64,000 bases of DNA from Nitrospinales bacterium (lineage in GTDB: Bacteria; Nitrospinota; Nitrospinia; Nitrospinales; JAJDAT01): the NCBI GenBank assembly GCA_046757665.1, contig JBHHYO010000004.1:14395-78394 (forward strand). The letters run 5' to 3'. The notes beneath the pieces were generated by a model that was not told the DNA's origin, ran no database searches, and saw nothing but the letters and a program-made list of their open reading frames with translations. Shown piece by piece: positions 3,877 through 54,913 of this stretch (position 1 is the stretch's first letter; each line of letters starts with the position of its first letter). The position numbers were made by a program, and so were the translations under genes.

Positions 3877-5859
3877 CTATTCGCTGAACTTGACCAATCC
3901 TCCCCAGACGTACATTTTGCGGCGGTCTTTCTTAATTTCCAACCAGGGCTTGCCGTTATGCAGGGACTTTAATTTCCGCAGGAGAAGCAGGCGTTCGCCC
4001 TTGCGGGCGGTGGCTGTTTGCGGGAATTTCACGCCGGGGCCTTTCTTCAACGTCACACCGTCGATCAGGGCGACGACGAATTTTTGTTCCTTCTCCGGTT
4101 CCGTAGCGGGTGCCGCGGGGGCGGGTTCGCTGACCTGCGGCGCGGAAGGCAAGTCCAGCTCGGTTTCCGAAGAAGCTTCCGGCAGGGAAATTTTGGGAAC
4201 GTCCGGAACGGCGGGCGGACGAATATCCACCGTCTCCGCGAACGCCGTTTTTGCCGATGGCGCTTGCGGCGGCGCCGGCGGGCTCGGCGGTTTGGGCCGC
4301 TCCGGAGCCTTGTCCGCTATCGACGACGGCTTCGGCTCCGGAGCCACCGACGCAACTTGCGGCGCCGCATCCGAAAACTTGACGAAAATGGGATTGGATA
4401 TCAGATAACTTTCCGTACTCACCTCGGCCTTCAGACGGTAATACACCTTGCCCTCGCGCTTGATGTTCATGTCCCGCCAAACCAGTTCATACGGCATGGT
4501 AACGATTTCTTTCTTGACCACTTCCCCGTCGCGGATGACGGACAACTCCACCCAGTCCGGAATGCCGTTGGTCAAGCGAAGGTTCACCTTCAGTTCCGGA
4601 AAGTTTTTCGTAACCAATTCATCGCCCATGACCGCCTCCCGGCCCGCCGCCTTCGCCTTGTCGGAAATGGTGAAATTGTCCAGCGAGAGGCGGAACTCGT
4701 CAGGTTGTTTCACCGCATACATCCTGCCCCGGCGCATGGCGTCGAGAACCGCTTTTCGGCTTTTTTCCTTCACCAGCAGAATGGTTCGAACGCCGCCCAG
4801 GGCGCGGCCGTTTTCGCCCTCGCACTGAAAATCATTTCCCCCGTACCCCCAAACCGGATGTGCCCGCTCTCCGCGCACGTATTGCAGGAGAACCTGGTCC
4901 CACTCCCTGCCCGGATCCGTCACGTGAATCTTGCCGTCGTAAACAGCTTCAAAACCGGTATAGTTCTTCGACAACAAAAGATCGCGCGGATGAGGGGGCG
5001 TGTCCAGGCCTACGGAATCCTTTTTGCCCACGCCGGCGGTCGACTCCAAATGGTTCCAGAAAACCATAGCGTCATGCGCAACCGCATAGTCGATCGTTTC
5101 CTGATACGGAGCAATTCCCTTGTCGCCGCCATACTGGTCAAAGGGGGAACTTTTGAACGGGTGATTGTTAACCGCCAGCAACAGAAAAACCACCGTGAAG
5201 AAAAAAGAAGTCTTCCGCCAAACCCTTTTGTAAAAAAGTCCGGCGCTGATCAAAAAAAGAACGGCCAGCACCAGAAACGACGGGCCGTAGCGGTCAATAT
5301 ATTTCGTGGAAAAATTACTGTTCAGAACCGGCAGTCGCTCATATTCCGAGGCGGAATTCAACCCGACGATCAGCAGATGCTTGTCCCAGTTGTGAGCCGT
5401 CAGGTTTTTATCGACCAGGTTCCCCGTCCAGTAATAAAACGGCGCACTTTCAACCGCCGGCACCAGCAGGGTTTCCGGAAACGTTTTATCGTTGGTGTTG
5501 ATTTCCGCAAGGTAAGCCGAAGCGCCGGAAGTGAGGATGGAATATTGTTCCTTTTTCTTTTTGACGATCCTTTCAAAAGGAAAAATTCCATACTCCAGGG
5601 ACATCCTGTCCCGGTCGCTGTAGATCACTACGTCGATGCCGCGGTGTTGCGCGATATTGGCCAACTCCTGCACCGAGGAACAGCCCGAACTGAACCGGGT
5701 TTTGACATCCGCCACCGCGTCGAGCTGAATATATTTTCCCAGAGCCGCGGCGGGAGCGGCGGCTTCCATAACAAGAAAGCCGATCAGGCCGGCCAGGCAA
5801 AGCCCCCAGCCTTGCAAAACACGCCGTTGCCATAATGAACAGTTAAAACACAACGTCAA
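3877..5859 (-). CDS. Membrane protein with a PHP-like (degenerate) N-terminal region, a Pro/Ala-rich linker and a C-terminal bacterial SH3-like domain
   Basis: TTG start at 5859 with GAGGAG 8 nt upstream. The signal/anchor is WGLCLAGLIGFLVMEAAAPAAA, and there are two internal TM helices (FLVLAVLFLISAGLF, FFFTVVFLLLAV). The low-complexity P/A/S/E linker maps to about 4084-4371. The C-terminus KFVVALIDGVTLKKGPGVKFP...KGERLLLL...GKPWLEIK...YVWGGLV fits the SH3b pattern. Confidence 0.6.
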   Translation of the reverse strand: MTLCFNCSLWQRRVLQGWGLCLAGLIGFLVMEAAAPAAALGKYIQLDAVADVKTRFSSGCSSVQELANIAQHRGIDVVIYSDRDRMSLEYGIFPFERIVKKKKEQYSILTSGASAYLAEINTNDKTFPETLLVPAVESAPFYYWTGNLVDKNLTAHNWDKHLLIVGLNSASEYERLPVLNSNFSTKYIDRYGPSFLVLAVLFLISAGLFYKRVWRKTSFFFTVVFLLLAVNNHPFKSSPFDQYGGDKGIAPYQETIDYAVAHDAMVFWNHLESTAGVGKKDSVGLDTPPHPRDLLLSKNYTGFEAVYDGKIHVTDPGREWDQVLLQYVRGERAHPVWGYGGNDFQCEGENGRALGGVRTILLVKEKSRKAVLDAMRRGRMYAVKQPDEFRLSLDNFTISDKAKAAGREAVMGDELVTKNFPELKVNLRLTNGIPDWVELSVIRDGEVVKKEIVTMPYELVWRDMNIKREGKVYYRLKAEVSTESYLISNPIFVKFSDAAPQVASVAPEPKPSSIADKAPERPKPPSPPAPPQAPSAKTAFAETVDIRPPAVPDVPKISLPEASSETELDLPSAPQVSEPAPAAPATEPEKEQKFVVALIDGVTLKKGPGVKFPQTATARKGERLLLLRKLKSLHNGKPWLEIKKDRRKMYVWGGLVKFSE

Positions 5860-13553: not shown

Positions 13554-14483
13554 TCACCGCCTGACAACCACAAGGGCCACGCCGGCAACGGCGGTGAACG
13601 CGCCGAGGTAACCCAGCGAACCGACAACCTCCGGCTCGATCCAGCCCGGCTTGAATTCCCCTATCAAGTGCATCACCAAAAGAGTGATCAATGGATTGAG
13701 AGTAATGATAACACTGACATGGGTCAGGGGGATCAACCTTATGGCCTCCAGCAGAGCCCCGTAAGCCAGCAGGGTGTTCAGTCCGAGAAAGACGAGTAAC
13801 AGCCAGCTTTTTGAGTTCGCCGCGGCAAACTCCGCCCACGCCACTCCAAAAACCAGCATCATCCCCGCCACGCCATAAACCAGCAGGTTCAGCGACTGCG
13901 CCTCATACCGAACACTGAGATATTTCAGAGCCGTAGCGTACACCGCCCAAACGACCGCCGCGAAAATAATATGTCCATTTGCGATGGAATACAGACCCGG
14001 AGCCACCGTCTGCTGTTTCTGGTCCAGATAAAAAATCACAAAACCGCCAACGGCAACAAACATCCCGGCGGCCTGCCGCCCTCGCAACTTTTCATGAAAC
14101 AGGTACACGCCCGCCAACACCACCAGAACCGGCGCCAGTTGAATCAGGATAGCGGTGTTGGAGGGGCCGCTGAACTGCACTCCCCGCAAAAAATAAAAAT
14201 AATTGGCGGCCAGGCAAACCCCTGCCAGCAAACCCGGCCCGGGCGGATGCCGCAGAATCGCCAGAGGTTCGGATTTACGCAGGCCCAAAACCGCCAGCAA
14301 AACCGTGAAGGCAAAGACAAACCGAAACCACACGATGGTGCCGGCGGAAAACTCCGTCAAGGCCGCCTTCGAGACGATCGGCAAAACGCCCCACAACAAG
14401 CAGGTGCAGAGGGCAAACAAAACCCCGCGCAGGTAAGCGGCGGATTCCACCGCTTCCGGATTAGCTGACGACTCGGCTGTCAT
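13554..14483 (-). CDS. EamA/DMT-family transporter
   Basis: 309 aa with about 10 predicted TM helices in two EamA-like halves. ATG at 14483. Confidence 0.8.
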   Translation of the reverse strand: MTAESSANPEAVESAAYLRGVLFALCTCLLWGVLPIVSKAALTEFSAGTIVWFRFVFAFTVLLAVLGLRKSEPLAILRHPPGPGLLAGVCLAANYFYFLRGVQFSGPSNTAILIQLAPVLVVLAGVYLFHEKLRGRQAAGMFVAVGGFVIFYLDQKQQTVAPGLYSIANGHIIFAAVVWAVYATALKYLSVRYEAQSLNLLVYGVAGMMLVFGVAWAEFAAANSKSWLLLVFLGLNTLLAYGALLEAIRLIPLTHVSVIITLNPLITLLVMHLIGEFKPGWIEPEVVGSLGYLGAFTAVAGVALVVVRR

Positions 14484-41677: not shown

Positions 41678-43984
41678 TCAACTCAGCCCCAGTTTTCGGC
41701 GAGTCCACCATTCCATGGACAGGAAACCGATGAACATAAAATAAACCCACCAATTATCCCACAAGGAGAGGATTTTACTGTCCGACTTCGTGCGGACTTC
41801 CGGATTGGAGAATCGCTGGTCGGCCAAATTTGTCTGCTCATCCAAAACCCGGAAAGCGCCGCCCGTCGCTTCCGCCATGGTTTTTAAGAGCAAACTATTG
41901 ATGAGGGGCTTTTCAAACTCCGCCGTTTCGCTAAAGACGCTGAACAACGCTTCTTTTTTGAGATCTTCGGCTGCCCGTTTCAACCGGGCGGAATAAAAAC
42001 CCTCTCCCGAAGGAGTAAATTCAAAATTCGCTTCACCCAACGCATTCGTCTGTAACGTATGCTTGGAGAGAGTTTTCCCATTGGAAATGGAATGAAGAAT
42101 CAAGTCGATCTTTTCGTTGGGAAGGGGATTATAATCCTCCCTCAGCATTTTAACTTTGATCAGTACCTTTTCGTTTTCCCTGTACCGTTCCTTGTCGGTT
42201 TCGATTTTAATCTGCTGAGTTTCCGGCTCGTTCGTCATCCAGGCCACCACATTGTTCCAGAAGTTTTGATAGTACCTTCCGCTACCCCCCTGCCCAACCC
42301 GCAGAAAATTCCATGCCCAGGAGGAGTCCGTCGCCAGAATTAGGGAGCGCCCGTCGCCGTTCTTGCGGACCGCCAGGACGGGATAGGCGTCGCCGTGATC
42401 TCCCGTCTTCGTATAACGAATCAAGACCTGAGCATCCTTCGCTGGCTCCAGGCCGATATTCAATCCCCTGAGTTCCGGCATGGAACTCCAGGCCTCATGA
42501 TTCAGTTCCTCGCTTTTTTCCAGACGCAGGATGGGATGGTGGGCAAACTGCTTGCCGATCCGCGGTTTGAAGGCATCGTTTAAAAACTGGCTCGTTTTAC
42601 TTCGGATCCTGACCGGAAGAATATTATCGACCCCCGTCTGGTAATACCCTCCGCCCTGGAAAGAGAGATCGCCTCCAATCATGATGAAAGCGCCGCCATG
42701 ACGCACGTATTTTTCAATATTCTCCAAATACTGCTTTTGAATAAAAGGCTTGTATCGAAAATTTTGAAAGATCACCAGGTCGAATGAACCCAGATAGTCG
42801 CTCAGCAGTAAATTGGATGGAAACGAGATAAGGCTCAGCTCCGAAACCGAGGCCTGCACATCGTCCGAAAAGCTTCTGAGAATAAAAAACGACAACAAGT
42901 CGACTTTGGGGTTATTGATGAGAACTTCCCGAAGAAACCGCGCATCCCAGGAAGGACGCCCATTCAAAAGCAGAACCCGGATGCGGTCGCGGATCACCTT
43001 GACCTGAAATTCCTTGCGATTATTGCTTTCAATGGATTCGCCGACGAACAGCGGCACGGAAAGAGTGTAAACTTTTTTGCCTGTCGTATTGGGAACAAAT
43101 TGCAGATCGGTTTTGTAGCGGCTCTGCCCCTCTTTGATCTCGATAACTTTCGACACCAGAACCTTGTCGCCCTCTTTGAGAACCAGCGGAATATTTTTAT
43201 TGCCCATGGAAGAGGCGATGAGGCTCACGGAGAGATTCACTTCCTGACGAACAAACCCAAAATCGGCTCCCTCCAGTTTTTCGATTCCCAGGTCCTTGAA
43301 ATTTTCATTACTGCCCGCCTGGAAAGTATGGATCGGCGCTTCAAAAAAGGACAGCGTATCCGCCATCTCCTCAGAGACCTCCGCCAAATCCTCCCCCAGG
43401 TCGGCGCCATCGGAAAACAGCATCACCCCCTGAAGCGCTTTTCCTTCATAATGCTTTTTTACTTCCCGCAACACCTGATTCAAATCCGTGTTTAATCCCT
43501 GAACCCGGTATCGACTCTCGATATCCGATCCGGGCACCGCAGTGATCCGATCAGACGCAAAATAAAAATCCACCTGAAAATCTTTTTTCAGGTTCTCAAA
43601 ATAATCCCGGTTTTTCTTCAGTACCCGGCGAACAATGTCGAACCGCGGCTTTTCCTCCGGAAAGGTTTTGATTGCCAGGCTTTTGCTGTCATCCAGCAAC
43701 ACGGCAATGGAATTTTTTTGAATTCGGCTTTTGTTGAATTCGAGCTCGGGTTTGAACAAAATCAGAAGAAGCAGAAGAAAACTGATAACCCGCAGACCAT
43801 AAAGGAAAGCTTTGTTCAAGGGAGACCGGATCCGCCTCAGGCTGGTCCAAAAAAACCATAAAGCCACCGGAACCACAAAAATCGCAAAAACCAAAATCCA
43901 TTCGACTTCACTTGTTCCCCACCGAACTTCCCAATTGTCGAATTCGTCGAATGGCAGACCGAGTAGATCAGCTAGAAAGTTCAC
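41678..43984 (-). CDS. BatA/VWA-like membrane protein (768 aa): N-terminal double TM, VWA-like region, GATase1-like region, C-terminal TM anchor
   Basis: The GTG start overlaps the DUF4159 stop (GTGA). N-terminal TMs: WILVFAIFVVPVALWFFW and AFLYGLRVISFLLLLLILF. MIDAS-like motif: AVLLDDSKS. Family-typical motifs: RVLLLNGRPSWDARFLREVL and GGAFIMIGGDLSFQGGGY. C-terminal anchor: WWVYFMFIGFLSMEWWTRRKLGL. Confidence 0.75.
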   Translation of the reverse strand: MNFLADLLGLPFDEFDNWEVRWGTSEVEWILVFAIFVVPVALWFFWTSLRRIRSPLNKAFLYGLRVISFLLLLLILFKPELEFNKSRIQKNSIAVLLDDSKSLAIKTFPEEKPRFDIVRRVLKKNRDYFENLKKDFQVDFYFASDRITAVPGSDIESRYRVQGLNTDLNQVLREVKKHYEGKALQGVMLFSDGADLGEDLAEVSEEMADTLSFFEAPIHTFQAGSNENFKDLGIEKLEGADFGFVRQEVNLSVSLIASSMGNKNIPLVLKEGDKVLVSKVIEIKEGQSRYKTDLQFVPNTTGKKVYTLSVPLFVGESIESNNRKEFQVKVIRDRIRVLLLNGRPSWDARFLREVLINNPKVDLLSFFILRSFSDDVQASVSELSLISFPSNLLLSDYLGSFDLVIFQNFRYKPFIQKQYLENIEKYVRHGGAFIMIGGDLSFQGGGYYQTGVDNILPVRIRSKTSQFLNDAFKPRIGKQFAHHPILRLEKSEELNHEAWSSMPELRGLNIGLEPAKDAQVLIRYTKTGDHGDAYPVLAVRKNGDGRSLILATDSSWAWNFLRVGQGGSGRYYQNFWNNVVAWMTNEPETQQIKIETDKERYRENEKVLIKVKMLREDYNPLPNEKIDLILHSISNGKTLSKHTLQTNALGEANFEFTPSGEGFYSARLKRAAEDLKKEALFSVFSETAEFEKPLINSLLLKTMAEATGGAFRVLDEQTNLADQRFSNPEVRTKSDSKILSLWDNWWVYFMFIGFLSMEWWTRRKLGLS

Positions 43985-44739
43985 GGTGAATGATATCTCC
44001 GCAACCGGTCCAATATAATGGGCAAATGCACCATATCCTTTTTATAATCCAGGGTGAGGGCATACAGCACAATGTTCACCCCCAACCGAATGCTTGACCT
44101 CCTTTGGATAAGTCCTCCGCCGATCATATCGTAATTCCAATGCCCCAGTTTGTTCCGTGCCCAAGCCCCCTCCAGGTCGTTGGTGGAGTAAAGAAGAACC
44201 GTTCGCCCCTTGAGAGTGATTCCCTCGAGAAACGGACGGGTAACCACGCGGCCGGCAACCCGGTTGACCAAATAAAAAGACCGGAAGATCGAATGATTCC
44301 TGGAAATCCTTTCCAGAGGGGTGTTGGGAAACAGTTGGGAAATCATGTGACGGACCGAATCATCAAACGCGGAATCGACTTTTCCGGAACTGTCGTCGAT
44401 CAGCAAAAACCCTCCATAGCTCAAATAATTCCTCAATATTTTCAGTTCTTCCGGAGAAAAGGGCTCGAAGGCGCTGTCGCCCGACATCAAAATAAACGGC
44501 AATTGAAACAAATGGGGGTCTTTGAGGCTTATATCCACGGCCTCCCGTTTAACTTCCACCGAGGTCCTTCTGGCCGTCTGGGCCAGCAGGCTTTCTACCG
44601 CCTCCGGCCGCGGCTTGTAATTTCCTCCCTGATATTTGAGCTGTGCGATCCGCAACTTGGAAAAATCCCCGATCCCCCAGGCTGAAGAACCGATCAGGCC
44701 GCAACACACACAAATCAAAAACAAAAATTTTTTTCGCAT
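43981..44739 (-). CDS. DUF4159-family protein (exported)
   Basis: Signal-like N-terminus MRKKFLFLICVCCGLIGSSAWG. Family-like motifs: LKYQGGNYKPRPEAVESLL, LPFILMSGDSAFEPFSPEELKILRNYLSYGGFLLIDD. Confidence 0.7.
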   Translation of the reverse strand: MRKKFLFLICVCCGLIGSSAWGIGDFSKLRIAQLKYQGGNYKPRPEAVESLLAQTARRTSVEVKREAVDISLKDPHLFQLPFILMSGDSAFEPFSPEELKILRNYLSYGGFLLIDDSSGKVDSAFDDSVRHMISQLFPNTPLERISRNHSIFRSFYLVNRVAGRVVTRPFLEGITLKGRTVLLYSTNDLEGAWARNKLGHWNYDMIGGGLIQRRSSIRLGVNIVLYALTLDYKKDMVHLPIILDRLRRYHSP

Positions 44740-46064: not shown

Positions 46065-46727
46065 ATGCAACTCTATCAACTAATGAAAGACTACGCCGCC
46101 GCCCACGGTAGCAAACCCGATCCGGACTCGGCCACACCGGAGTTGGGATACAACCTTTCCCTTTTTCATGCCTGTCTGGTAGAAGCCGGGCTGGATCAGG
46201 AAGAGTCCGCCGGCACACAAAAATTGACCGCACCTCCACAGGACATACGCCCTTCCCTTCTGGCCCGGTTCATGGTCGGATTTTTACCCAGCCATTCCAT
46301 AACGGGAAAAAATGAAATCAACAACATTCTGTTTGAACTCTATTCTTTTTTGAAGTGGCTTGATAAAAAAGACATCCAACATGGCTTGGCGAATATCAAC
46401 TTCCAACAATGGATCAAAAAACTTTCGACCGATCAAACCCGGTGCCGGCAACTGAACCGCTTGCTGGATCAGGAAGCCGGACGTATTCTCGACGAACCCC
46501 CACCCATCACCCACACCGTTAGCGACACGTTTTCCGTGGCGAAAATCGAAAAGGAATTCGTTTATTTAAAAGGCGGAAGTTTTTCCGACCCGGTTCGACT
46601 CCGTCTCGCAAACGACATCCTCAAGCTAATCAAACTGAACGACCACCTGGAAATGGTGTTGGGCGACACTTCCAACAAATGGGTTCTTCTGGAGTGCGGC
46701 GAGGTGTTCCCCGGCTTTCAGCGATAA
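46065..46727 (+). CDS. Hypothetical protein (220 aa)
   Basis: ATG lies 25 nt after the transaminase stop. The composition is protein-like and I recognise no motif. The 3' end overlaps the convergent giant gene by 10 nt. Confidence 0.55.
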   Translation: MQLYQLMKDYAAAHGSKPDPDSATPELGYNLSLFHACLVEAGLDQEESAGTQKLTAPPQDIRPSLLARFMVGFLPSHSITGKNEINNILFELYSFLKWLDKKDIQHGLANINFQQWIKKLSTDQTRCRQLNRLLDQEAGRILDEPPPITHTVSDTFSVAKIEKEFVYLKGGSFSDPVRLRLANDILKLIKLNDHLEMVLGDTSNKWVLLECGEVFPGFQR

Positions 46728-49700
46728 TCGCCGGTGAGGTTGAATCCCGCCCAATAAGAAGGATGAGGATAGAGTTTTTTAACCAGTAACTGCGCTTTCC
46801 GCAAACTTTCCGCTTTCTCTTCACGAGCATAAATGCGGTAAAAATGCTTGACCAATATGGCGGTGGAAATGTCGCTCACCCGCCACAAGGAAGAAAGAAT
46901 AGCGTGCGTACCGGCATAAATAAACGCCCGGTTGAGGCCCACCAGTTCATCGCCGCCGACAATCTTTCCCAAACCCGTCTGACAGGCGCTTAACGTCACC
47001 AGGTCGGCATTGACATTGACGGCAAACACCTCGTTCACTTCAAAATTGCCGTCATCGGATTCATCGCGCGTCAGCTTCAACGCAGAGAACAGAGGGTTGA
47101 CCGCATCGAACTCTCCGTGCGAAGCGATATGGATGATCTGGTAATCGTTGATATGCTCCTTGATCCAGCTTTCCCTGGCCTTGTCGCCGGTCAAAAGGTC
47201 GATTTGCGGGAAATCCCATTTTATCGACCTCGCTTCCAGTTCCGCCAACGGCAAATCGTAATTCAAACTCCCCAAATCCGGGTTGCCGACCGCCAGCACC
47301 TTGACGATCTTGCTCTTGTCGAATTTCCTCGCAAAAGTATATTGCAGTACCGAGGCGCTGGGAGAATAAAACAAGGGGTGCTGTTCGACCAGGTATCCCC
47401 CGTCTCCTTTAAGGGAAGCAAAAGAGACGTAATGTAAAATCCCGTTGGGAATCAAGCCGAGGATGCGCGTGCCGCGGATGTGTTCCTCGATGGGCTTTAT
47501 GACCCAGGCATAAAGCCGGGCAGACGTGTCGTCCATCGGCGCCGATTGTTGCATACGTTTTCGATAATCCTTGACCACCCGAGCGAGGTCCTGTTCGCTG
47601 ACCTGGGTACGGGCAACCGCAAGGCCGTCTTTTTTAACTACCCACGCCACCAACTCATCTTTCGTCACAAGGTATTCCACCAGGGCGACGTTTATCTCCA
47701 ACAATCCTTGAAGTTGTTTCAGGCCGATCGATTCCACCGCAATGAAACTTGAAATTTGCGGGCTTTGTTCCTTGGCGTCGATTAGAAAATCCCGGTAACG
47801 GTCACGCTCGGCAACCAGTTGGGCGGAAAGTTGCCGGGTTTTGTCCCCGTCCCCGGACCGGCCAAGAGCCTCTTCCAATTTCCTGATTTTATTTTTTTGA
47901 CGGATCAGGCGGTCATAAAGTTTTTGGCTGACTTCGTTTTTCAAATTGATCTTGTTGTTGCCCAGCAGGTCGATGAAGCTCCGCGATTTGGCGCGTTCCG
48001 CAAAGGAAAAAGACTCCTCGTTTTTTCCCTGGTCGAGGAGCAACAGGATCAGTTCCTTGTAGACATCCTGCTTGTCCGTAAGAAACCCGTTCTGAAACTC
48101 CTCGATTTTGATGGCGGCCCGCATTTTTTCCACGGTATCCACGGCCTTTTTGTAAGCGGCGACGGCTTCGTCCGGCCGACCGGTCTGCGCCAGGCACATC
48201 CCCTGGCCCCGCAAGGCGCGCCAGCGCACCTCGGGAATACCCAGAGCCGCCGCCAGCGTCTCCGTTTTCCGGAAAACAGCAATCGCCGCCGCGCACTGTT
48301 TTCTCTTCAAAGCCAGGTTTCCCAACTCCAGCATGGACTTGACCTCATTGGTCCGGTTGCCGATTGCCCGGCTCAGACCGACCGCCTGCTTGATGTGGTT
48401 TTCCGCCTGATCCAAGCGCCCCATGCGCAGATAACTTATGCCGAGATTGCGATGCGTGTAGCCCTGCCCCCATTTGGATTTGAGACGAATATCCCGTTCC
48501 AGGGCTTTATTGAAAAATTCGATGGCCTTGCCGTACTGCTTGTCCTTGCGATAAATCAATCCGATGTTGTTGAACGCGGTGGCAATATCCAAAAGCGAGT
48601 TGATTTCCCTGGCCAGGTCAAGACTCTTGTGCAACGACCGCAGGGCGCGTTCCGAATCATTCAGCGTCCAGTAAATCAGGCCAAGCGTGTTGTGAATAAA
48701 TGTTTGCTGTCGTTTGTCGCCGATCGCCTCGGCGATCTCCAGGGAGCGTTTTTGCATCCGGAAGGCATTTTGGTAATTCCCCTGGTACCAATAGCTGTTT
48801 CCCTGGTACAGTAGCGATTTTGACAGTCCCAGTTGCAAGTCATGAACCTCGGCCAGGCTCTGCGCCTGCCGATAAAGCGCCAGTGCCCGGTCGAAATCCC
48901 CTTGCTTTTCCGTCACCAATCCCAGCTCCAGTAACGTCTCTGCAATCTGGTCCGTTTGATCCAGTTCCTGAAAAAGCTTGTTGGCCTCGGCAAAATATTT
49001 TCTCGCCTCATCGTAATTGGCGAGCCTTAAATAGTAAATCCGGCCGATCCTTCGCAGTTCGCGTCCCTTGTTTAAATCCTCGCCGATTTCCTCGTTGATT
49101 TTCAGCGAGGCATTAAACGCCTGCAACGCTTTGCCGTAATCCAGTGCATTTTCCTCGACGATACCCAGGGTGCTGTAGCTTTCCGCCAGCCGGTCCAACA
49201 ACTCATATTCCTGATAAATGGACAGGGCTTTTTGCAAAAGCTCCACGGCGCGGGGATACTGTTCCGCCCGCGAATGCAGGATTCCGAGAAAATAAACGGC
49301 CTGCGCCAATTGTTCCGGGTCGTCCGCCTGCTCCGCCAGCCGCACCAGCTCCAACTGATACTTGATCGCGGCCGGGTAATCCTTAAGGTTATAAGCCCCC
49401 AGAGCCAGCGTTTTGTAGATTTCCTGCTGAAATTTTTTCTCCGGGAGAAAACCGATCAGCGACAGGGCTTTTTCAAACGAATTGATGGAACTCTCCCAGC
49501 GTTTTTCGGAAAACGCCTGAAGCCCGTTTGTGACGTTGGCATCGAAATGAGCTTGCGCGAAGATTTGTTTTTCATGTTCCGTCATGCCGGGGAAACCGTA
49601 AAACCGGTACCGCGCCCAGCCGTAGGAGCCGGGATGCCGCCGGGCCAGTTCGACCTGGGCGCGACGAAGAGACTCCGCCGGGTTGCCCTTGCGAAAATCG

Positions 49701-52700
49701 CGGTAGAACAGATCGAGAAACTCCTCCCGGTTGGGAGGATTCCACATCCCCAGCAAAACGCCCGGATACCCCGTAAACGTCAAGCCTTGCAAAAGCAATG
49801 CGGTCGGCGACAACTCGCCGCCACCTTCCAACTTCAATGTGTTGAGGGCAATGAAATTCCCGCCCAGGGTGGTGCGGAAAAGCTCCCTCAAGCTCAACCG
49901 TTCAAAATGGTCTTCGTTGCGCGTCATGCTGATATAGGAATCCTCTGGAACCGCGCTCCTCAGCACAACCGGACTCTCGATATCCAGCACTCCATAATTT
50001 TGCCAATGGGTCCGGAAACGGTCCGACGCCCCCTCGCCGCCGGCAAGGTTTTGCGCCGCGGCAAAGGAGGGGCCGATGCCGGCAAAGGCTTTCTCCGGAA
50101 ACTCCACGGCCAGCAAACGGGAGTTATACAGATTTTTCCTGGCCTGGGAAAAATAATACTGTGAAAACGAAGAGAGAAACGCGATGGGAAGCGCTTCCAC
50201 CAACGGTCTTTGTTTGAAGCTCATTGCCGCCCACGGCAAAAACTCCAGGGGCCCGCCGGCAACAAGATAGAGAAATTTTGCCCGACCCAGCAACTTCTCG
50301 ACCGGCACCACGAACGTATTGGAGAGGTCGGCGATTTCCCGCGGCCCGATTTTGACGGCACCCGACGCCACCCGGGAAAGAAGTTTCAAAATTCCGGGAT
50401 CGCAGACGAATTTTCCGCCTCGGACTGACGAGCGGTCGATTGCCCAAATCAGAATCCGGTCATTGATCTTTTGATATTTCAAGACCAGGTCGCCCGGCCG
50501 CAACAAGGCCTGCATGGCCTGGGCATCCGGAACTTCCGGATAAAACAAGGAAGCCAGTTCCCGGTCATCCTCCCGCACAAGAGACACGAACTCCGCGTAC
50601 TCATCCAAAAGCGCCTGCAACCCATCCTCATCCAATTTCGGCTGGCCCTCCGACATTCCGTCAACCGCCTCTTTGATTTGGGCGGCAAGACTTTCAAGCT
50701 CCGCATAATAATCCTGTCGGGTCTCGTCCTGGAATTGCCGGGTTTTCAACGGCGGAGCCTGGCGCAGAGCGATCAAACTCCATTGCAGGCCCTTCTCGGA
50801 AAAATACATGGCCTCACGGTATTTCCGCCGGTCGAACATCTCACGGGTCAGTACCTGATAAAGCTCCGTCAACATGGCCCGGGAACTGGCATCGGCGGGC
50901 AACAGTCCATAAGGCAGGCGGGACAACTGCTTTTCCGCTTGCAAAAGCAAAGCCAACCGCTCGTCTCCATCCTTCTCCAGGGATTGCAGAAACTCAAACT
51001 GCCACCGGTACGGAAGGGGCTCGCGATTGCCGCTGGAAACTTTTTTATTGTTTTTGGACTTGCCGGGTTTCCGAGCCAAGGAGTTGGCCACCAAAAGGTT
51101 TTGCCGCAACGCCGCTTCCAGTTTGTCCTTTTCAGGACCCGGAGCCAGGTTCCCGGCCGCCGACAACGCCTGCTCAAAAAAACGCGCCGACTTTTTGCCG
51201 AACTTGTCGAATCCCTTGAAATAGAGATCCGATTCTTTTCGCAATTCCTTATAGGCGGCGAGAAAAGCTTCCACCGGCGGCCGGCCGGTTGTTTGTTTTC
51301 CACCAACCGCGGCTTGCCCGCCTTGCGAAAGCCGCGCCAGGTATTGATAAAAAATCCCCAGATAATTTCGCAGATAAACACCGTATTCCGGGTTGGGGAA
51401 GTTTCGGAACTTTTCCATTCGGGTCACTGCGTCCTCAAGCAGTTTAACGGTATTCTGGATTTCATCGCGCAACGGGCCAATGGGACGGGACTGGAGTTTG
51501 GCAAGGAGAACCCGGCCCATATTGGCGGCGTTCACCACGATCCCGCGCCGATTCCGCAATTGCCGGCTCGCGTCATAGGACAACCGGAAATAGCGCAGGC
51601 TGAAGTCGTAGTCGCCTTTTCGATAAGAAAAATTTCCGATCTGATTTTGTATCAGGGCCTTTTCCAGGAGAGCGGCGACATCTTTTTCGGGATCGAGATT
51701 ATCGGCGACTAAGTCGAGTTTCTTTTGGAAATAATCGACCGCCTTCCCATATTCCTTGAAATCGCCATAAATTTTTCCGATGTAGTGAAACGCCATTTTT
51801 TTCTCGCCCACCTCATCGAATCCGGAGGCGGCGGTGGAGGCGTTTTCACCCAACGGGGTTTCGACCTGAACATTAATCAGTCCATCCCCGGACTTTTTGT
51901 CCTTGCCGATCACGCCGAATTTCTCAAGGTTTTCCACCGCCCGGAAGTAATTGGCAAGCGCGTGGCTCATCGCCCTGGCATCCTCTCCGCCCTCCTGCCG
52001 GCTCAACCAGAACAGATTGTTGGCAATGTTCCGCATGGCCCGGGTCATGGACTTGTAATTGCCGGTTTTGCGGTGCAGGTCCATCGCCGCCGTAAAATGT
52101 TCCACGGCCCCGGCGTACTTTCTCTGATCCTGATAGGCCAGGGCGATGCGGTCGTTGAGCTCGGCCATCCGTTTCAATTCCTTGTTTGCCGAAACGATTT
52201 CCAACGCCTTTTGCAGTTGGCGCACAGCGGCGACAGAGTTTCCGGCCTTAAAAGCGCTTTCGCCGAACCGCTGATAAAAAACGGCGGCCCGTCTGGGATC
52301 GGCAAAGGCCAACTGCACTGCCGCCCTTTGTTTGTAATAGTGATAGGCGGTGGAAAAGTTTTTCAGCAGGTAATTGCCGTTACCCAGATTCAACAAAAGA
52401 TTGGCCTCGTTTTCCGGGTTCCGGTCCTCGTCGTTGAGCGCCAGGGCCGTTTGGTATTCCTGAAGAGCCCGTTCCAGATAATCCTCTTTTTTTTGCAGAG
52501 TTTCTTTTTGCTCAAACACCCAGCCGAGAGTCTGATGGAAATAAACATCCTGGGAATTGACCGACAACGCCTGGCCGATCTCTTTTTCCGCCTCATCCAG
52601 GCCGGGCGGATTCAGGTACGTGTAGGCCAGGCCCAGGGCGTAATGATCCGCCGCCGAGCCGCCGTTTTTTCCCAAACGGCTTTTATAAAATCGAATGGCA

Positions 52701-54808
52701 TCGTCGATCTTCCCCAGCGCCGCGCCGGCCTGCACGTAGCCCCGGTGCGCCTCTATGGTTTCGGGGCTGAAAGCGATCAGTTTGAGGAAACTTTTCAACG
52801 CCAGCTTGGTCTCCCCCACCTTGAGTTCCCATTTGCCTTTTTCAATGGATTTGCGAATATACCCGGCGCGGGCTTTTTGCCGGCTCGCTTTTAACTCCTC
52901 CGATTCCCCGGCGGCGGCAATCTCCTGGTAGTAGGACAGAGACTTTTCAAAGTTTTCTTCCTCGGAGTAAATGTTGGCGAGCGCAAACTGGGCCTTGAAT
53001 TTTTCGGAAACCACATCCGGAAAACGCTTGATGGTTTGTTGATAGGCTTCCTTGGCCAGGAGGTTTTCGCTGGCCCGGTAATATAATTCTCCGATGCGGT
53101 TTTGCAGAGCCGCGGCCAACGCAGGCGCTTTCTCGTATTTCACGGAAAGAGCTCGCAGTTCGGACACCTTGTCCTCCAGGACAGGTTGTTTTTCAAACAA
53201 GGCGAATATTTCCCGGATAGCCTTTTGCCGCCAAACCTCAACGTCGTAGTAATCCCGAACAACCCGCACAAAAGCCAGAACCAGATTGTCGTGGTCCCCG
53301 ACCGTGGTATAAATTTTACTTTGGGACCAGGCCGCCTCCGCGGCGATATTCCGCTGTCGGGGATATTCGGCGATAACCTTTTTGTAAAAATTCAAAGCCC
53401 GGTTCAACTCCTCCAGTTCAAAACTCACGTTGCCCATTTCCAGATAGGCGCGGGCGGCAACGCCGGGTTCTTCATGGCCTGTCAGAGTTTCAAGAGGTTT
53501 CAGGATTTTCCGGATTTCCCGCCGGTAAACCGATTTCCCCGATTTTTTTGATTTCGCCGCCTGCAACAGCAACAGATCAATCTCCGCGAGACCCCGGTAA
53601 AGCGGATCGCCGGGCGCTTCCTTCAACAAAGCGTTGAAAATCTTTTCCGCGAAATTAGAGTGCCCCATCCGCAGATGCCCTTGCGCCAGCCGGTAATGAG
53701 CGCGGGCGATCCCCTCCTCGCCGCTGAAATTTTCGACCAGATTGGTATACGCCAACAAACAACGGTAGGAAACGGTTTGAAGGCCGGGGCACAAAGCCTC
53801 GGTCTTTTTCAGGGCGGCGGCATAATCGCCGGGCAGGGGAAACAATCCTTGGGCGGGAAGCTCCCAGATGTCGCTATTGGTTTTTCGGTCGGAAGTGAAA
53901 ATAAGTTTCCCGCGAGCGCTCGCAGGGAAAAGATCGTACGTGGAGCTGTCGGTCAATTGCCGCAATTTCCCCGCTCCATTCACCCATTCCAAACTCCAGA
54001 TATTGGCGCGGTCCTCGATCGTCAGCCGCCCATCCCCATTGGTGTCATCCCGGTAACGGACAAAATAAATCCGTTTTCCGTCCACGGACCAGGCGGGAGA
54101 GACATCGATATCATCACCCCGCGTGACTTGCGCGAGGCCACTGCCTTGCAAATCCTGAACCCACAACGAACCGCTGGGGTCGTCTTTTTTGGAGACAAAA
54201 GCCAGATAGCGGCCGTCCGGCGAAACCGCCCCGTTGAAACCCTCCATGGGCGATACCGGAGTTTTGGACTTGCCCTTAACGCCGATTTTGTAAATCTTCT
54301 TGAAATTGCCATTTGCGGCGAGTGAGGAGAAAAAAACGAATTTCCCGTCTGCCGACCATGCCGGATCGCTTTCGGAGGACCCGGCGCCGGTCAGGCGGAC
54401 GGTTTCCGGCTCCCCGTCGGTTGCCTGGCCATCCAGCCGGAGCAGGTACAAGTCGCCCTTGGCGTCGGAGCGATGCGAAATAAACGCCACCCACTTGCCG
54501 TCCGGACTCAAGGTGGGGGTGGTGTCGGCGGCGCTGTGAAACGTCAATCGCCGGTCGGGCGCACCGGGTCCCGGCCCCAGGCGTTTCCACCACAAGTCAA
54601 GGTTGCCCGACCGGTCGGAAACGTAAACCATGAACGAACCGTCTCCGGCAACCGCCGGAGCAAAATCCTCGCCGGGGTTGGTGGTGAGTTGAACCGGACG
54701 GTTGAACCCATCCTCCGCCCAGATATCGCCCGCCAAAGGGCCGGATAGAGCCAGCGGCGCCAGGACGATCACCATCAATAACCACATGCGTTTGCCTGCA
54801 ACCTTCAT
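46718..54808 (-). CDS. Giant multidomain protein (about 2,696 aa from ATG 54808): signal peptide, PD40/TolB-like beta-propeller, TPR array, degenerate CHAT-like domain, TPR array, CHAT peptidase domain
   Basis: A single uninterrupted ORF. The track start is TTG 54853; ATG 54808 gives MKVAGKRMWLLMVIVLAPLALSGPLAGDIWA. PD40 repeats include SPDGKWVAFISHRSD, SADGKFVFFSS, SPDGRYLAFVS and SVDGKRIYFV. There are dozens of TPR-like helices. The C-terminal CHAT dyad is IIHIASHGEF / LVTLSACQTG. Confidence 0.85.
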   Translation of the reverse strand: MKVAGKRMWLLMVIVLAPLALSGPLAGDIWAEDGFNRPVQLTTNPGEDFAPAVAGDGSFMVYVSDRSGNLDLWWKRLGPGPGAPDRRLTFHSAADTTPTLSPDGKWVAFISHRSDAKGDLYLLRLDGQATDGEPETVRLTGAGSSESDPAWSADGKFVFFSSLAANGNFKKIYKIGVKGKSKTPVSPMEGFNGAVSPDGRYLAFVSKKDDPSGSLWVQDLQGSGLAQVTRGDDIDVSPAWSVDGKRIYFVRYRDDTNGDGRLTIEDRANIWSLEWVNGAGKLRQLTDSSTYDLFPASARGKLIFTSDRKTNSDIWELPAQGLFPLPGDYAAALKKTEALCPGLQTVSYRCLLAYTNLVENFSGEEGIARAHYRLAQGHLRMGHSNFAEKIFNALLKEAPGDPLYRGLAEIDLLLLQAAKSKKSGKSVYRREIRKILKPLETLTGHEEPGVAARAYLEMGNVSFELEELNRALNFYKKVIAEYPRQRNIAAEAAWSQSKIYTTVGDHDNLVLAFVRVVRDYYDVEVWRQKAIREIFALFEKQPVLEDKVSELRALSVKYEKAPALAAALQNRIGELYYRASENLLAKEAYQQTIKRFPDVVSEKFKAQFALANIYSEEENFEKSLSYYQEIAAAGESEELKASRQKARAGYIRKSIEKGKWELKVGETKLALKSFLKLIAFSPETIEAHRGYVQAGAALGKIDDAIRFYKSRLGKNGGSAADHYALGLAYTYLNPPGLDEAEKEIGQALSVNSQDVYFHQTLGWVFEQKETLQKKEDYLERALQEYQTALALNDEDRNPENEANLLLNLGNGNYLLKNFSTAYHYYKQRAAVQLAFADPRRAAVFYQRFGESAFKAGNSVAAVRQLQKALEIVSANKELKRMAELNDRIALAYQDQRKYAGAVEHFTAAMDLHRKTGNYKSMTRAMRNIANNLFWLSRQEGGEDARAMSHALANYFRAVENLEKFGVIGKDKKSGDGLINVQVETPLGENASTAASGFDEVGEKKMAFHYIGKIYGDFKEYGKAVDYFQKKLDLVADNLDPEKDVAALLEKALIQNQIGNFSYRKGDYDFSLRYFRLSYDASRQLRNRRGIVVNAANMGRVLLAKLQSRPIGPLRDEIQNTVKLLEDAVTRMEKFRNFPNPEYGVYLRNYLGIFYQYLARLSQGGQAAVGGKQTTGRPPVEAFLAAYKELRKESDLYFKGFDKFGKKSARFFEQALSAAGNLAPGPEKDKLEAALRQNLLVANSLARKPGKSKNNKKVSSGNREPLPYRWQFEFLQSLEKDGDERLALLLQAEKQLSRLPYGLLPADASSRAMLTELYQVLTREMFDRRKYREAMYFSEKGLQWSLIALRQAPPLKTRQFQDETRQDYYAELESLAAQIKEAVDGMSEGQPKLDEDGLQALLDEYAEFVSLVREDDRELASLFYPEVPDAQAMQALLRPGDLVLKYQKINDRILIWAIDRSSVRGGKFVCDPGILKLLSRVASGAVKIGPREIADLSNTFVVPVEKLLGRAKFLYLVAGGPLEFLPWAAMSFKQRPLVEALPIAFLSSFSQYYFSQARKNLYNSRLLAVEFPEKAFAGIGPSFAAAQNLAGGEGASDRFRTHWQNYGVLDIESPVVLRSAVPEDSYISMTRNEDHFERLSLRELFRTTLGGNFIALNTLKLEGGGELSPTALLLQGLTFTGYPGVLLGMWNPPNREEFLDLFYRDFRKGNPAESLRRAQVELARRHPGSYGWARYRFYGFPGMTEHEKQIFAQAHFDANVTNGLQAFSEKRWESSINSFEKALSLIGFLPEKKFQQEIYKTLALGAYNLKDYPAAIKYQLELVRLAEQADDPEQLAQAVYFLGILHSRAEQYPRAVELLQKALSIYQEYELLDRLAESYSTLGIVEENALDYGKALQAFNASLKINEEIGEDLNKGRELRRIGRIYYLRLANYDEARKYFAEANKLFQELDQTDQIAETLLELGLVTEKQGDFDRALALYRQAQSLAEVHDLQLGLSKSLLYQGNSYWYQGNYQNAFRMQKRSLEIAEAIGDKRQQTFIHNTLGLIYWTLNDSERALRSLHKSLDLAREINSLLDIATAFNNIGLIYRKDKQYGKAIEFFNKALERDIRLKSKWGQGYTHRNLGISYLRMGRLDQAENHIKQAVGLSRAIGNRTNEVKSMLELGNLALKRKQCAAAIAVFRKTETLAAALGIPEVRWRALRGQGMCLAQTGRPDEAVAAYKKAVDTVEKMRAAIKIEEFQNGFLTDKQDVYKELILLLLDQGKNEESFSFAERAKSRSFIDLLGNNKINLKNEVSQKLYDRLIRQKNKIRKLEEALGRSGDGDKTRQLSAQLVAERDRYRDFLIDAKEQSPQISSFIAVESIGLKQLQGLLEINVALVEYLVTKDELVAWVVKKDGLAVARTQVSEQDLARVVKDYRKRMQQSAPMDDTSARLYAWVIKPIEEHIRGTRILGLIPNGILHYVSFASLKGDGGYLVEQHPLFYSPSASVLQYTFARKFDKSKIVKVLAVGNPDLGSLNYDLPLAELEARSIKWDFPQIDLLTGDKARESWIKEHINDYQIIHIASHGEFDAVNPLFSALKLTRDESDDGNFEVNEVFAVNVNADLVTLSACQTGLGKIVGGDELVGLNRAFIYAGTHAILSSLWRVSDISTAILVKHFYRIYAREEKAESLRKAQLLVKKLYPHPSYWAGFNLTGDYR
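46721..47690 (-). other. C-terminal CHAT (caspase-like) peptidase domain with an intact dyad
   Basis: The His codon is at 47117-47119 (IASHGEF) and the Cys codon at 46982-46984 (LSACQTG). The C-terminal motif is AFIYAGTHAILSSLWRVSD. Confidence 0.75.
49583..50500 (-). other. Internal CHAT-like domain lacking the catalytic His/Cys (track residues about 1452-1757)
   Basis: It aligns by eye to the C-terminal CHAT domain. QNYGVLDIESPVVL aligns with NDYQIIHIASHGEF, giving His->Pro at 49970-49972. GNFIALNTLKLEGG aligns with ADLVTLSACQTGLG, giving Cys->Leu at 49835-49837. The spacing is 45 residues in both copies. Confidence 0.65.
53855..54700 (-). other. PD40 (TolB-like) beta-propeller region of the giant protein (track residues about 52-333)
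   Basis: At least six repeats of the form (S/D)P-x-x-S-x-DG-k-x-i-x-F-x-S, each followed by (D/N)-(L/I)-(W/Y). Confidence 0.7.
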
Positions 54809-54913
54809 GGGCAGTCGAGTCCAACAAGAGGAAAACGGTTTTATGCTATTCAATATTATACCTTAATCTCCAGGGCGAAAAGCGCCGCCCGGAAATCCTG
54901 CTTCAACATTTCC

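Follow-up and report, generated by a model that had tools for sequence, protein, structure and literature searches.

A complete CHAT domain without its catalytic dyad lies at a near-constant distance from the active protease in giant TPR-CHAT proteins of Nitrospinota and other phyla

Why would a giant protease carry, in the middle of its chain, a second copy of its own catalytic domain from which the catalytic residues are missing? The question is raised by a gene of a Nitrospinales bacterium (assembly GCA_046757665.1, contig JBHHYO010000004.1), located in the stretch of 64,000 nucleotides analysed here (positions 14,395 to 78,394 of the contig; hereafter the window, to which all coordinates refer). 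At 46718..54853 on the minus strand the window holds a single open reading frame (ORF), 2,711 codons long when read from TTG, and residues are numbered throughout from this TTG at 54853. Its product ends in a CHAT protease domain that follows an array of tetratricopeptide repeats (TPR), and a further CHAT-like segment lies upstream of that array. A sequence-only reading of this DNA had proposed that the internal segment is an anciently inactivated CHAT paralogue, with the catalytic His and Cys replaced by Pro and Leu at unchanged spacing. Our analysis agrees with this in its essentials. We consider it likely that the internal segment is a complete CHAT domain, which lost its dyad before the diversification of a putatively exported family of about 2,500-2,900-residue proteins and which has been kept for a non-catalytic role in scaffolding or binding. 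The parts of the gene that carry this argument are the following:

49583..50605, minus strand: internal dead CHAT domain, residues 1417-1757 (Pfam, BLASTP, AlphaFold2, Foldseek)
49970-49972, minus strand: codon CCG of Pro1628, at the position of the catalytic His
49835-49837, minus strand: codon TTG of Leu1673, at the position of the catalytic Cys
47804..49582, minus strand: spacer, residues 1758-2350, a regular TPR array followed by two long helices that connect to the active CHAT domain (Pfam TPR_12, E=1.8e-67, 11 stretches)
46721..47803, minus strand: C-terminal active CHAT domain, residues 2351-2711 (best Pfam CHAT stretch 2443-2709)
47117-47119, minus strand: codon CAC of His2579, read directly
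46982-46984, minus strand: codon TGT of Cys2624, read directly

Is the internal segment truly a CHAT domain? The protein as a whole scores 226.1 bits against Pfam CHAT (PF12770). Scanned alone, the internal segment reaches 42.5 bits (gathering cutoff 24; E=7.1e-11) over profile positions 6-286 of 289, and BLASTP aligns it with the C-terminal segment at E=1e-18 (21% identity over 361 columns), a similarity well above chance. The segment had earlier been placed at about residues 1452-1757. Those residue numbers and their mapping to 49583..50500 are correct, but the start lies about 35 residues too late: homology begins at residue 1417 and includes the motif 'DRELASLF..', the counterpart of 'PELASL' in ordinary CHAT proteins. 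Therefore, we define the domain as residues 1417-1757 (49583..50605). An AlphaFold2 (AF2) model of residues 1417-1760, built on an alignment of 52 rows, has a mean predicted local distance difference test score (pLDDT) of 91.9 and a predicted template modelling score (pTM) of 0.90; the alignment took in active CHAT domains, which favours a CHAT fold, and the homology rests separately on Pfam and BLASTP. In a Foldseek comparison of this model with the PDB, the best match is the Craspase TPR-CHAT chain 8d9f_A (E=2e-12, TMq 0.66, 345 columns). The 17 matches with E of 0.001 or less (TMq 0.50-0.67 over about 340-390 columns) are 15 Craspase TPR-CHAT/Csx29 chains, DdvA (8rot) and one ciliary central-pair protein. 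Given that the best alignment extends over about 345 columns, the dead-domain model covers one whole CHAT unit. A phmmer search of the internal segment against PDB sequences gave no match even at E of 10 or less, so the link to a known fold came from profile and structure comparison only. We conclude that residues 1417-1757 are a complete CHAT-fold, caspase-like domain.

The catalytic His and Cys of the H-G and A-C motifs are not in the internal domain. In three independent alignments (BLASTP, MAFFT and hmmalign) Pro1628 is aligned to His2579 and Leu1673 to Cys2624, in agreement with the four codons, all read directly, and none of the three produced an alternative with a His and a Cys at the catalytic sites. 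Since there is no relative gap between the two sites, the spacing is 45 residues in both the inner and the C-terminal copy, just as the sequence-only reading had it. Judged by these residues, the internal domain is a CHAT homologue that cannot work as a Cys-His protease.

A scan of species-representative genomes recovered collinear orthologues in six Nitrospinota metagenome-assembled genomes (MAGs), to which a partial Nitrospinales protein (P0001) can be added. In the Nitrospinota orthologues the former His site holds P, K or R and the former Cys site L, V or I, while the C-terminal motifs 'HIASHGEF' and 'LSACQTGLG' are invariant. The wider family was harder to find: a word-indexed homologue search yielded 3 matches only, and besides the genome scan, 1.84 billion cluster representatives had to be searched exhaustively with HMMER. 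This search retrieved dozens of proteins of 2,500-2,900 amino acids (aa) with two CHAT stretches at matching relative positions, annotated just as 'CHAT domain-containing protein', and the PD40/Tricorn_N N-terminus is kept in family members from other phyla. Two full-length CHAT matches are present in 41 proteins, the source names of which are Candidatus Nitronauta (Nitrospinota), Planctomycetota and KSB1. In the outer copy His and Cys are both present in 41/41, whereas the inner copy has the Cys in 0/41 and the His in 2/41, leaving no member with an intact inner dyad. The former His column reads P in 11, W in 10, T in five, K, R and E in three each, G and H in two each, and S and Q in one each; the former Cys column holds V, L, I, A, G or F. 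Because inner copies across phyla share the loss while outer copies keep His and Cys, the dyad loss, as read from these columns, predates the diversification of this multi-phylum family. The inactivation is thus ancient, as had been proposed, and is not a strain-specific decay.

The former active site is not equally variable everywhere. One subfamily (P0062, P0066, P0081, P0096, P0105, P0116, P0131, P0147, P0068 and P0069) has a conserved Trp at the former His site, usually within 'ERW', and most of its members have 'PP' immediately ahead of the former Cys site. This hints that the former active-site cleft may be under a constraint of its own in this subfamily, rather than drifting freely.

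A further feature of the family is the distance between the two domains. From the end of the dead CHAT to the start of the live one there are 591-620 aa (median 605, standard deviation (sd) 6.5) in 28 full-length members, and 593 in the window protein. For comparison, the start of the dead CHAT varies across members from residue 1292 to 1573 (sd 63), and the TPR part of 63 stand-alone TPR-CHAT proteins has a length sd of 90; the length of the dead domain itself is 309-371 aa (sd 12). The constancy of the spacer argues that the relative position of both CHAT units matters. As the sequence-only reading had noticed, each CHAT domain follows a helical-repeat array of its own, which both Pfam and the AF2 model support. 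A second AF2 model (residues 1512-2711, 1,200 aa), which starts 95 residues into the dead domain and was read for pLDDT (85.4), pTM (0.65) and secondary structure, contains an unbroken array of regular helical hairpins, the first TPR helix beginning 6 residues past the last strand of the dead CHAT. This junction is of high confidence, and low-confidence hinges occur solely near the live CHAT, at model residues 787-794 and 855-860. With a high-confidence junction and no linker, the dead CHAT has the appearance of a rigid cap that sits on the protease-bearing solenoid at its N-terminal end.

Selection has kept the dead domain in shape. The ratio of non-synonymous to synonymous substitution rates (dN/dS) is 0.127 for the dead domain in the orthologous loci L002 and L003 (dS 0.05), the same value as for the active domain in this pair. 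Between L004 and L006 it is 0.107, at a dS of about 1.06 that is near saturation, vs 0.053 for the active domain. The dead domain is under purifying selection and is kept folded. Conservation within it falls on core motifs that every CHAT domain has ('GPLEFLPWAA', 'F.G.PG.LL', 'NPAESLR.AQ' and 'W..YR.YG'), and the catalytic loops are not conserved.

Within the same pair, L003 (Nitrospinota MAG JACRGP010000171.1) has an in-frame TAG at 5037-5039 where L002, 98.5% identical, has a Glu codon, with an ATG directly after. The TAG divides the gene into 1,402 and 1,419 codons at a point that precedes the dead CHAT by about 120 residues. Sequencing error and recent pseudogenisation are two possible explanations; a third is that the gene is naturally divided, with propeller and TPR in one protein and CHAT-TPR-CHAT in the other.

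Food for thought is whether a domain lacking its dyad is of any use to the cell, and several observations speak against the role in scaffolding or binding that we favour. The dead CHAT is the fastest-evolving part of the protein: orthologues share 37-48% identity with the window protein in the dead CHAT vs 71-78% in the active CHAT, and invariant residues among five orthologues number 69/341 vs 193/361. Moreover, 13 of 39 representatives of at least 2,400 aa lack a full internal match (five partial or split, two very weak, six none), and the active module can therefore apparently dispense with a recognisable inner copy. Could the inner domain then be a slowly decaying, functionless relic, retained since its deletion would disturb the flanking repeats? 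That it is the least conserved region, that its former catalytic sites vary freely and that it is unrecognisable in some family members would all fit, but a dN/dS of about 0.11-0.13 is far from 1, the fold is confident (pLDDT 92) and persists over several phyla, and the narrow range of domain lengths given above would not be expected of a relic. We regard this explanation as very unlikely. Scarcely credible, in our opinion, is an enzyme in which other residues replace the canonical dyad. The five Nitrospinota orthologues do share a handful of invariant Ser, Glu, Asp and Lys residues, such as S1682 right past the former Cys loop; yet no His is invariant among the orthologues, none of the 41 two-CHAT members has a Cys at or near the nucleophile position, and the residues found in the catalytic columns are chemically disparate (P, W, T, K, R and E in one; V, L, I, A, G and F in the other). 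Altogether, selection retains the fold of the dead domain in most lineages, less strictly than it does the active module.

The members without a full inner copy are worth listing. No inner CHAT was detected by hidden Markov model (HMM) search in P0180, P0151, P0172, P0152, P0123 and P0140 (2,530-2,629 aa), and hhalign on members missed by the HMM search recovered only the first ~62 profile positions, weakly (probability 74%). P0158, P0181, P0187 and P0089 have vestigial, partial inner CHAT matches at the expected place, and P0059 keeps the inner domain as a split match.

Whether the arrangement is new depends on what it is compared with. Csx29 combines a non-catalytic pseudo-caspase, CHAT1, with an active caspase, CHAT2, in one chain and resembles the separases (PMC10028731). 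Like the window protein, this Craspase TPR-CHAT protein consists of a TPR array followed by a CHAT protease, and no structure in the PDB matches the dead-domain model better. However, its pseudo-caspase and active caspase are neighbouring halves of a single CHAT unit, whereas the dead part of the window protein is a whole additional CHAT unit, ~600 residues upstream. Csx29 is also cytoplasmic, about 700 aa long and bound to Cas7-11, unlike the window protein with its ~2,700 aa, signal-peptide-like N-terminus, PD40 propeller and no CRISPR neighbour. The NCBIfam model of Csx29 (NF041237) reaches 39.1 bits against a cutoff of 300, over the C-terminal CHAT only, and the same domain has a weak phmmer match to Csx29 near the Csx29 catalytic region.

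In separase, structures from 2016-2017 reportedly contain a non-catalytic caspase-like (pseudo-protease) domain ahead of the active protease. Separase is likewise a very large helical-repeat protein that ends in a caspase-like protease, and it ranks high among the structures that match the 1,200-aa model; in contrast to the window protein, it is eukaryotic, its pseudo domain abuts the active one, and it has neither a second CHAT detectable by sequence nor a propeller. A pseudo domain without the dyad in the same chain as an active domain is thus a trait shared with separase and Csx29-type units, but the two domains of the window protein are not contiguous in the manner of separase and Csx29, given the intervening TPR array of 593 residues (591-620 in the family).

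In view of Csx29 and separase, it is not new that one chain combines a dead caspase-like domain with a live one, and to call the pair a new arrangement for this family, as the sequence-only reading did, was an overstatement: both precedents already pair a pseudo with an active caspase, and the layout is typical of the multi-phylum family. The part that appears undescribed is the second, complete, dead CHAT unit at a near-constant distance upstream of the live one. The literature we searched held no description of tandem CHAT domains, of a dead full CHAT unit or of the PD40-TPR-CHAT family.

Another instructive comparison is DdvA of Myxococcus xanthus, a periplasmic TPR-CHAT anti-sigma factor with a CHAT unit of ~290 aa formed by one large 14-stranded sheet, in which His862 and Cys907 are 45 residues apart (PMC11506125). 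DdvA, a structural match of both AF2 models, shares with the window protein an extracytoplasmic TPR-CHAT build and the His-Cys spacing of 45 residues. It differs in having a single CHAT with the dyad intact, a membrane anchor with a cytoplasmic anti-sigma domain, and a dimer formed mainly via the TPR and scaffold domains. Bacteria also have pseudo-orthocaspases in which Tyr and Ser reportedly replace His and Cys (PMC6426788). These and the caspase-8/cFLIP pair resemble the dead CHAT as caspase-fold paralogues without a His-Cys dyad that are retained by selection, but they are separate polypeptides, unlike the two CHAT domains of the window protein. Finally, Chlamydomonas 7sqc_R0/R1 (about 2,070-2,080 aa) and mouse sperm 9ijj_A/B match both AF2 models as strongly as some Craspase chains do, and on the basis of the models eukaryotic axonemal central-pair proteins may hold a TPR plus CHAT-like module.

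cFLIP acts by heterodimerising via the caspase dimer interface, and the dead CHAT might in a similar manner pack on the active CHAT, of its own or of a second chain, as a pseudoprotease partner that tunes the active site. Both domains are co-conserved in 41/41 two-CHAT members, the chain distance between them stays within about 30 residues across phyla, suggesting a geometric requirement, and a pTM of 0.65 leaves room for a defined overall shape in the 1,200-aa model. Additionally, CHAT-CHAT contacts rigidify and activate the protease in SAVED-CHAT filaments (bioRxiv 10.1101/2023.06.23.546230). Nonetheless, we consider such pairing unlikely. In solved proteins the partner role is already filled within one CHAT unit, as by CHAT1 (pseudo-caspase) and CHAT2 of Csx29 (PMC10028731), and the dead-domain model aligns across that whole unit, over about 345 columns. 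A CHAT unit is complete without a second CHAT, which weakens the earlier argument from caspase dimerisation. Separase and the Craspase TPR-CHAT act as monomers, and the DdvA dimer, held mainly via TPR and scaffold domains, has no CHAT-CHAT contact (PMC11506125). About 600 residues of rigid solenoid lie between the two domains, and the inner copy is vestigial or absent in some family members. A related idea, which we hold to be rather improbable, is that the dead CHAT acts allosterically on the live one, the solenoid of constant length setting the distance, and that a substrate or ligand caught in the dead cleft or in the propeller gates the C-terminal protease.

The C-terminal CHAT is the sole protease in the protein, and the dead domain is unable to cleave peptides by the CHAT mechanism. 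If, as we favour, it serves as a scaffold or binding module, it would be a rigid cap or docking platform, fused directly to the TPR solenoid at its N-terminal end, and would fix the geometry of the propeller/TPR half relative to the catalytic module. Possibly it would also bind substrate or partner peptides. These functional proposals, like any influence of the dead domain on the active one, are inferences, whereas the homology, the fold, the loss of the dyad with its age and spread, the selective constraint and the constant spacer length are directly shown.

Another question regards the origin of the two copies. Dead domains are nearer to one another than to any active CHAT in 44/55 cases, consistent with one old origin. 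The window dead domain scores 102 bits against the stand-alone TPR-CHAT protein P0072 and 73.6 bits against its own C-terminal partner, a general pattern in the family. Intragenic duplication as the specific origin, to which the sequence-only reading had pointed, is therefore unproven. From sequence comparison, an intragenic duplication of a TPR-CHAT module is possible, and a fusion of two diverged TPR-CHAT genes would be equally possible.

The remainder of the gene consists of the following parts:

46718..54808, minus strand: whole gene, encoding a signal peptide, PD40 beta-propeller, helical/TPR region, dead CHAT, TPR array and active CHAT (ORF list, translation, Pfam)
54728..54808, minus strand: probable N-terminal signal peptide or membrane anchor MKVAGKRMWLLMVIVLAPLALSGPLAG, read from the sequence by eye
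53819..54694, minus strand: TolB-like PD40 beta-propeller, residues ~54-345 (Pfam PD40, 5 stretches, E=2.3e-36)
50606..53818, minus strand: N-terminal helical/TPR-like region, residues 346-1416 (scattered Pfam TPR_6, TPR_14, TPR_19 and SNAP matches)

The ATG at 54808 (M16) is the start chosen by the gene caller, giving a product of 2,696 aa of which an exact copy is on record on a Logan metagenome-assembled contig. It is more likely the start than the TTG at 54853, 15 codons upstream, because the signal-peptide-like sequence begins there; the TTG-based residue numbers used here therefore run 15 above those of database entries. Nearly all family members have similar basic-then-hydrophobic, signal-peptide-like N-termini, from which we infer that the giant TPR-CHAT protein and its relatives would be exported. 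The propeller region has a sub-threshold match to an NCBIfam TolB propeller model and precomputed Tricorn_N matches. The helical/TPR-like region that follows is 47-53% identical among Nitrospinota orthologues and variable in length across the family (sd 63 aa).

Both genes flanking the giant gene are on the opposite strand, and it therefore stands alone. At 46065..46727 on the plus strand, a convergent ORF of 220 aa with no Pfam match on record overlaps the 3' end of the giant gene by 10 bases. About 2 kb downstream and on the strand of the giant gene (41678..44739, minus) lie a DUF4159 gene and a 768-aa GATase1-like membrane protein ending in '...WWTRRKLGLS'. A similar C-terminal tail occurs on large ORFs at the equivalent place in three Nitrospinota orthologous loci (L004-L006), and not in Planctomycetota or other phyla, so the DUF4159/GATase1-like association is probably lineage synteny within Nitrospinota. 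A conserved operon partner was looked for across phyla and none was found, the neighbours being housekeeping genes that differ between phyla. PADLOC returned a generic TPR model and a weak BovA match on the C-terminal CHAT only, with nothing for the dead domain and no defence-type neighbourhood, and neither NCBIfam nor PADLOC has a specific model for the PD40-TPR-CHAT family.

The finding overturns nothing, since separase and Csx29 already unite a pseudo and an active caspase in one chain. It does define a family of giant, putatively exported TPR-CHAT proteases that is widespread and unstudied, with members in Nitrospinota, Planctomycetota, KSB1 and other groups, and it provides a clean natural case of a pseudoenzyme domain kept within the polypeptide of its active paralogue at a strikingly fixed spacer length. 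If the dead CHAT did gate the live one allosterically, the family would be an intramolecular, exported bacterial counterpart of protease/pseudoprotease regulation, in an unstudied group of giant proteins. A construct map for studying how CHAT proteases are regulated beyond CRISPR can be drawn from Cys2624, residues 1417-1757 and the 593-aa spacer.

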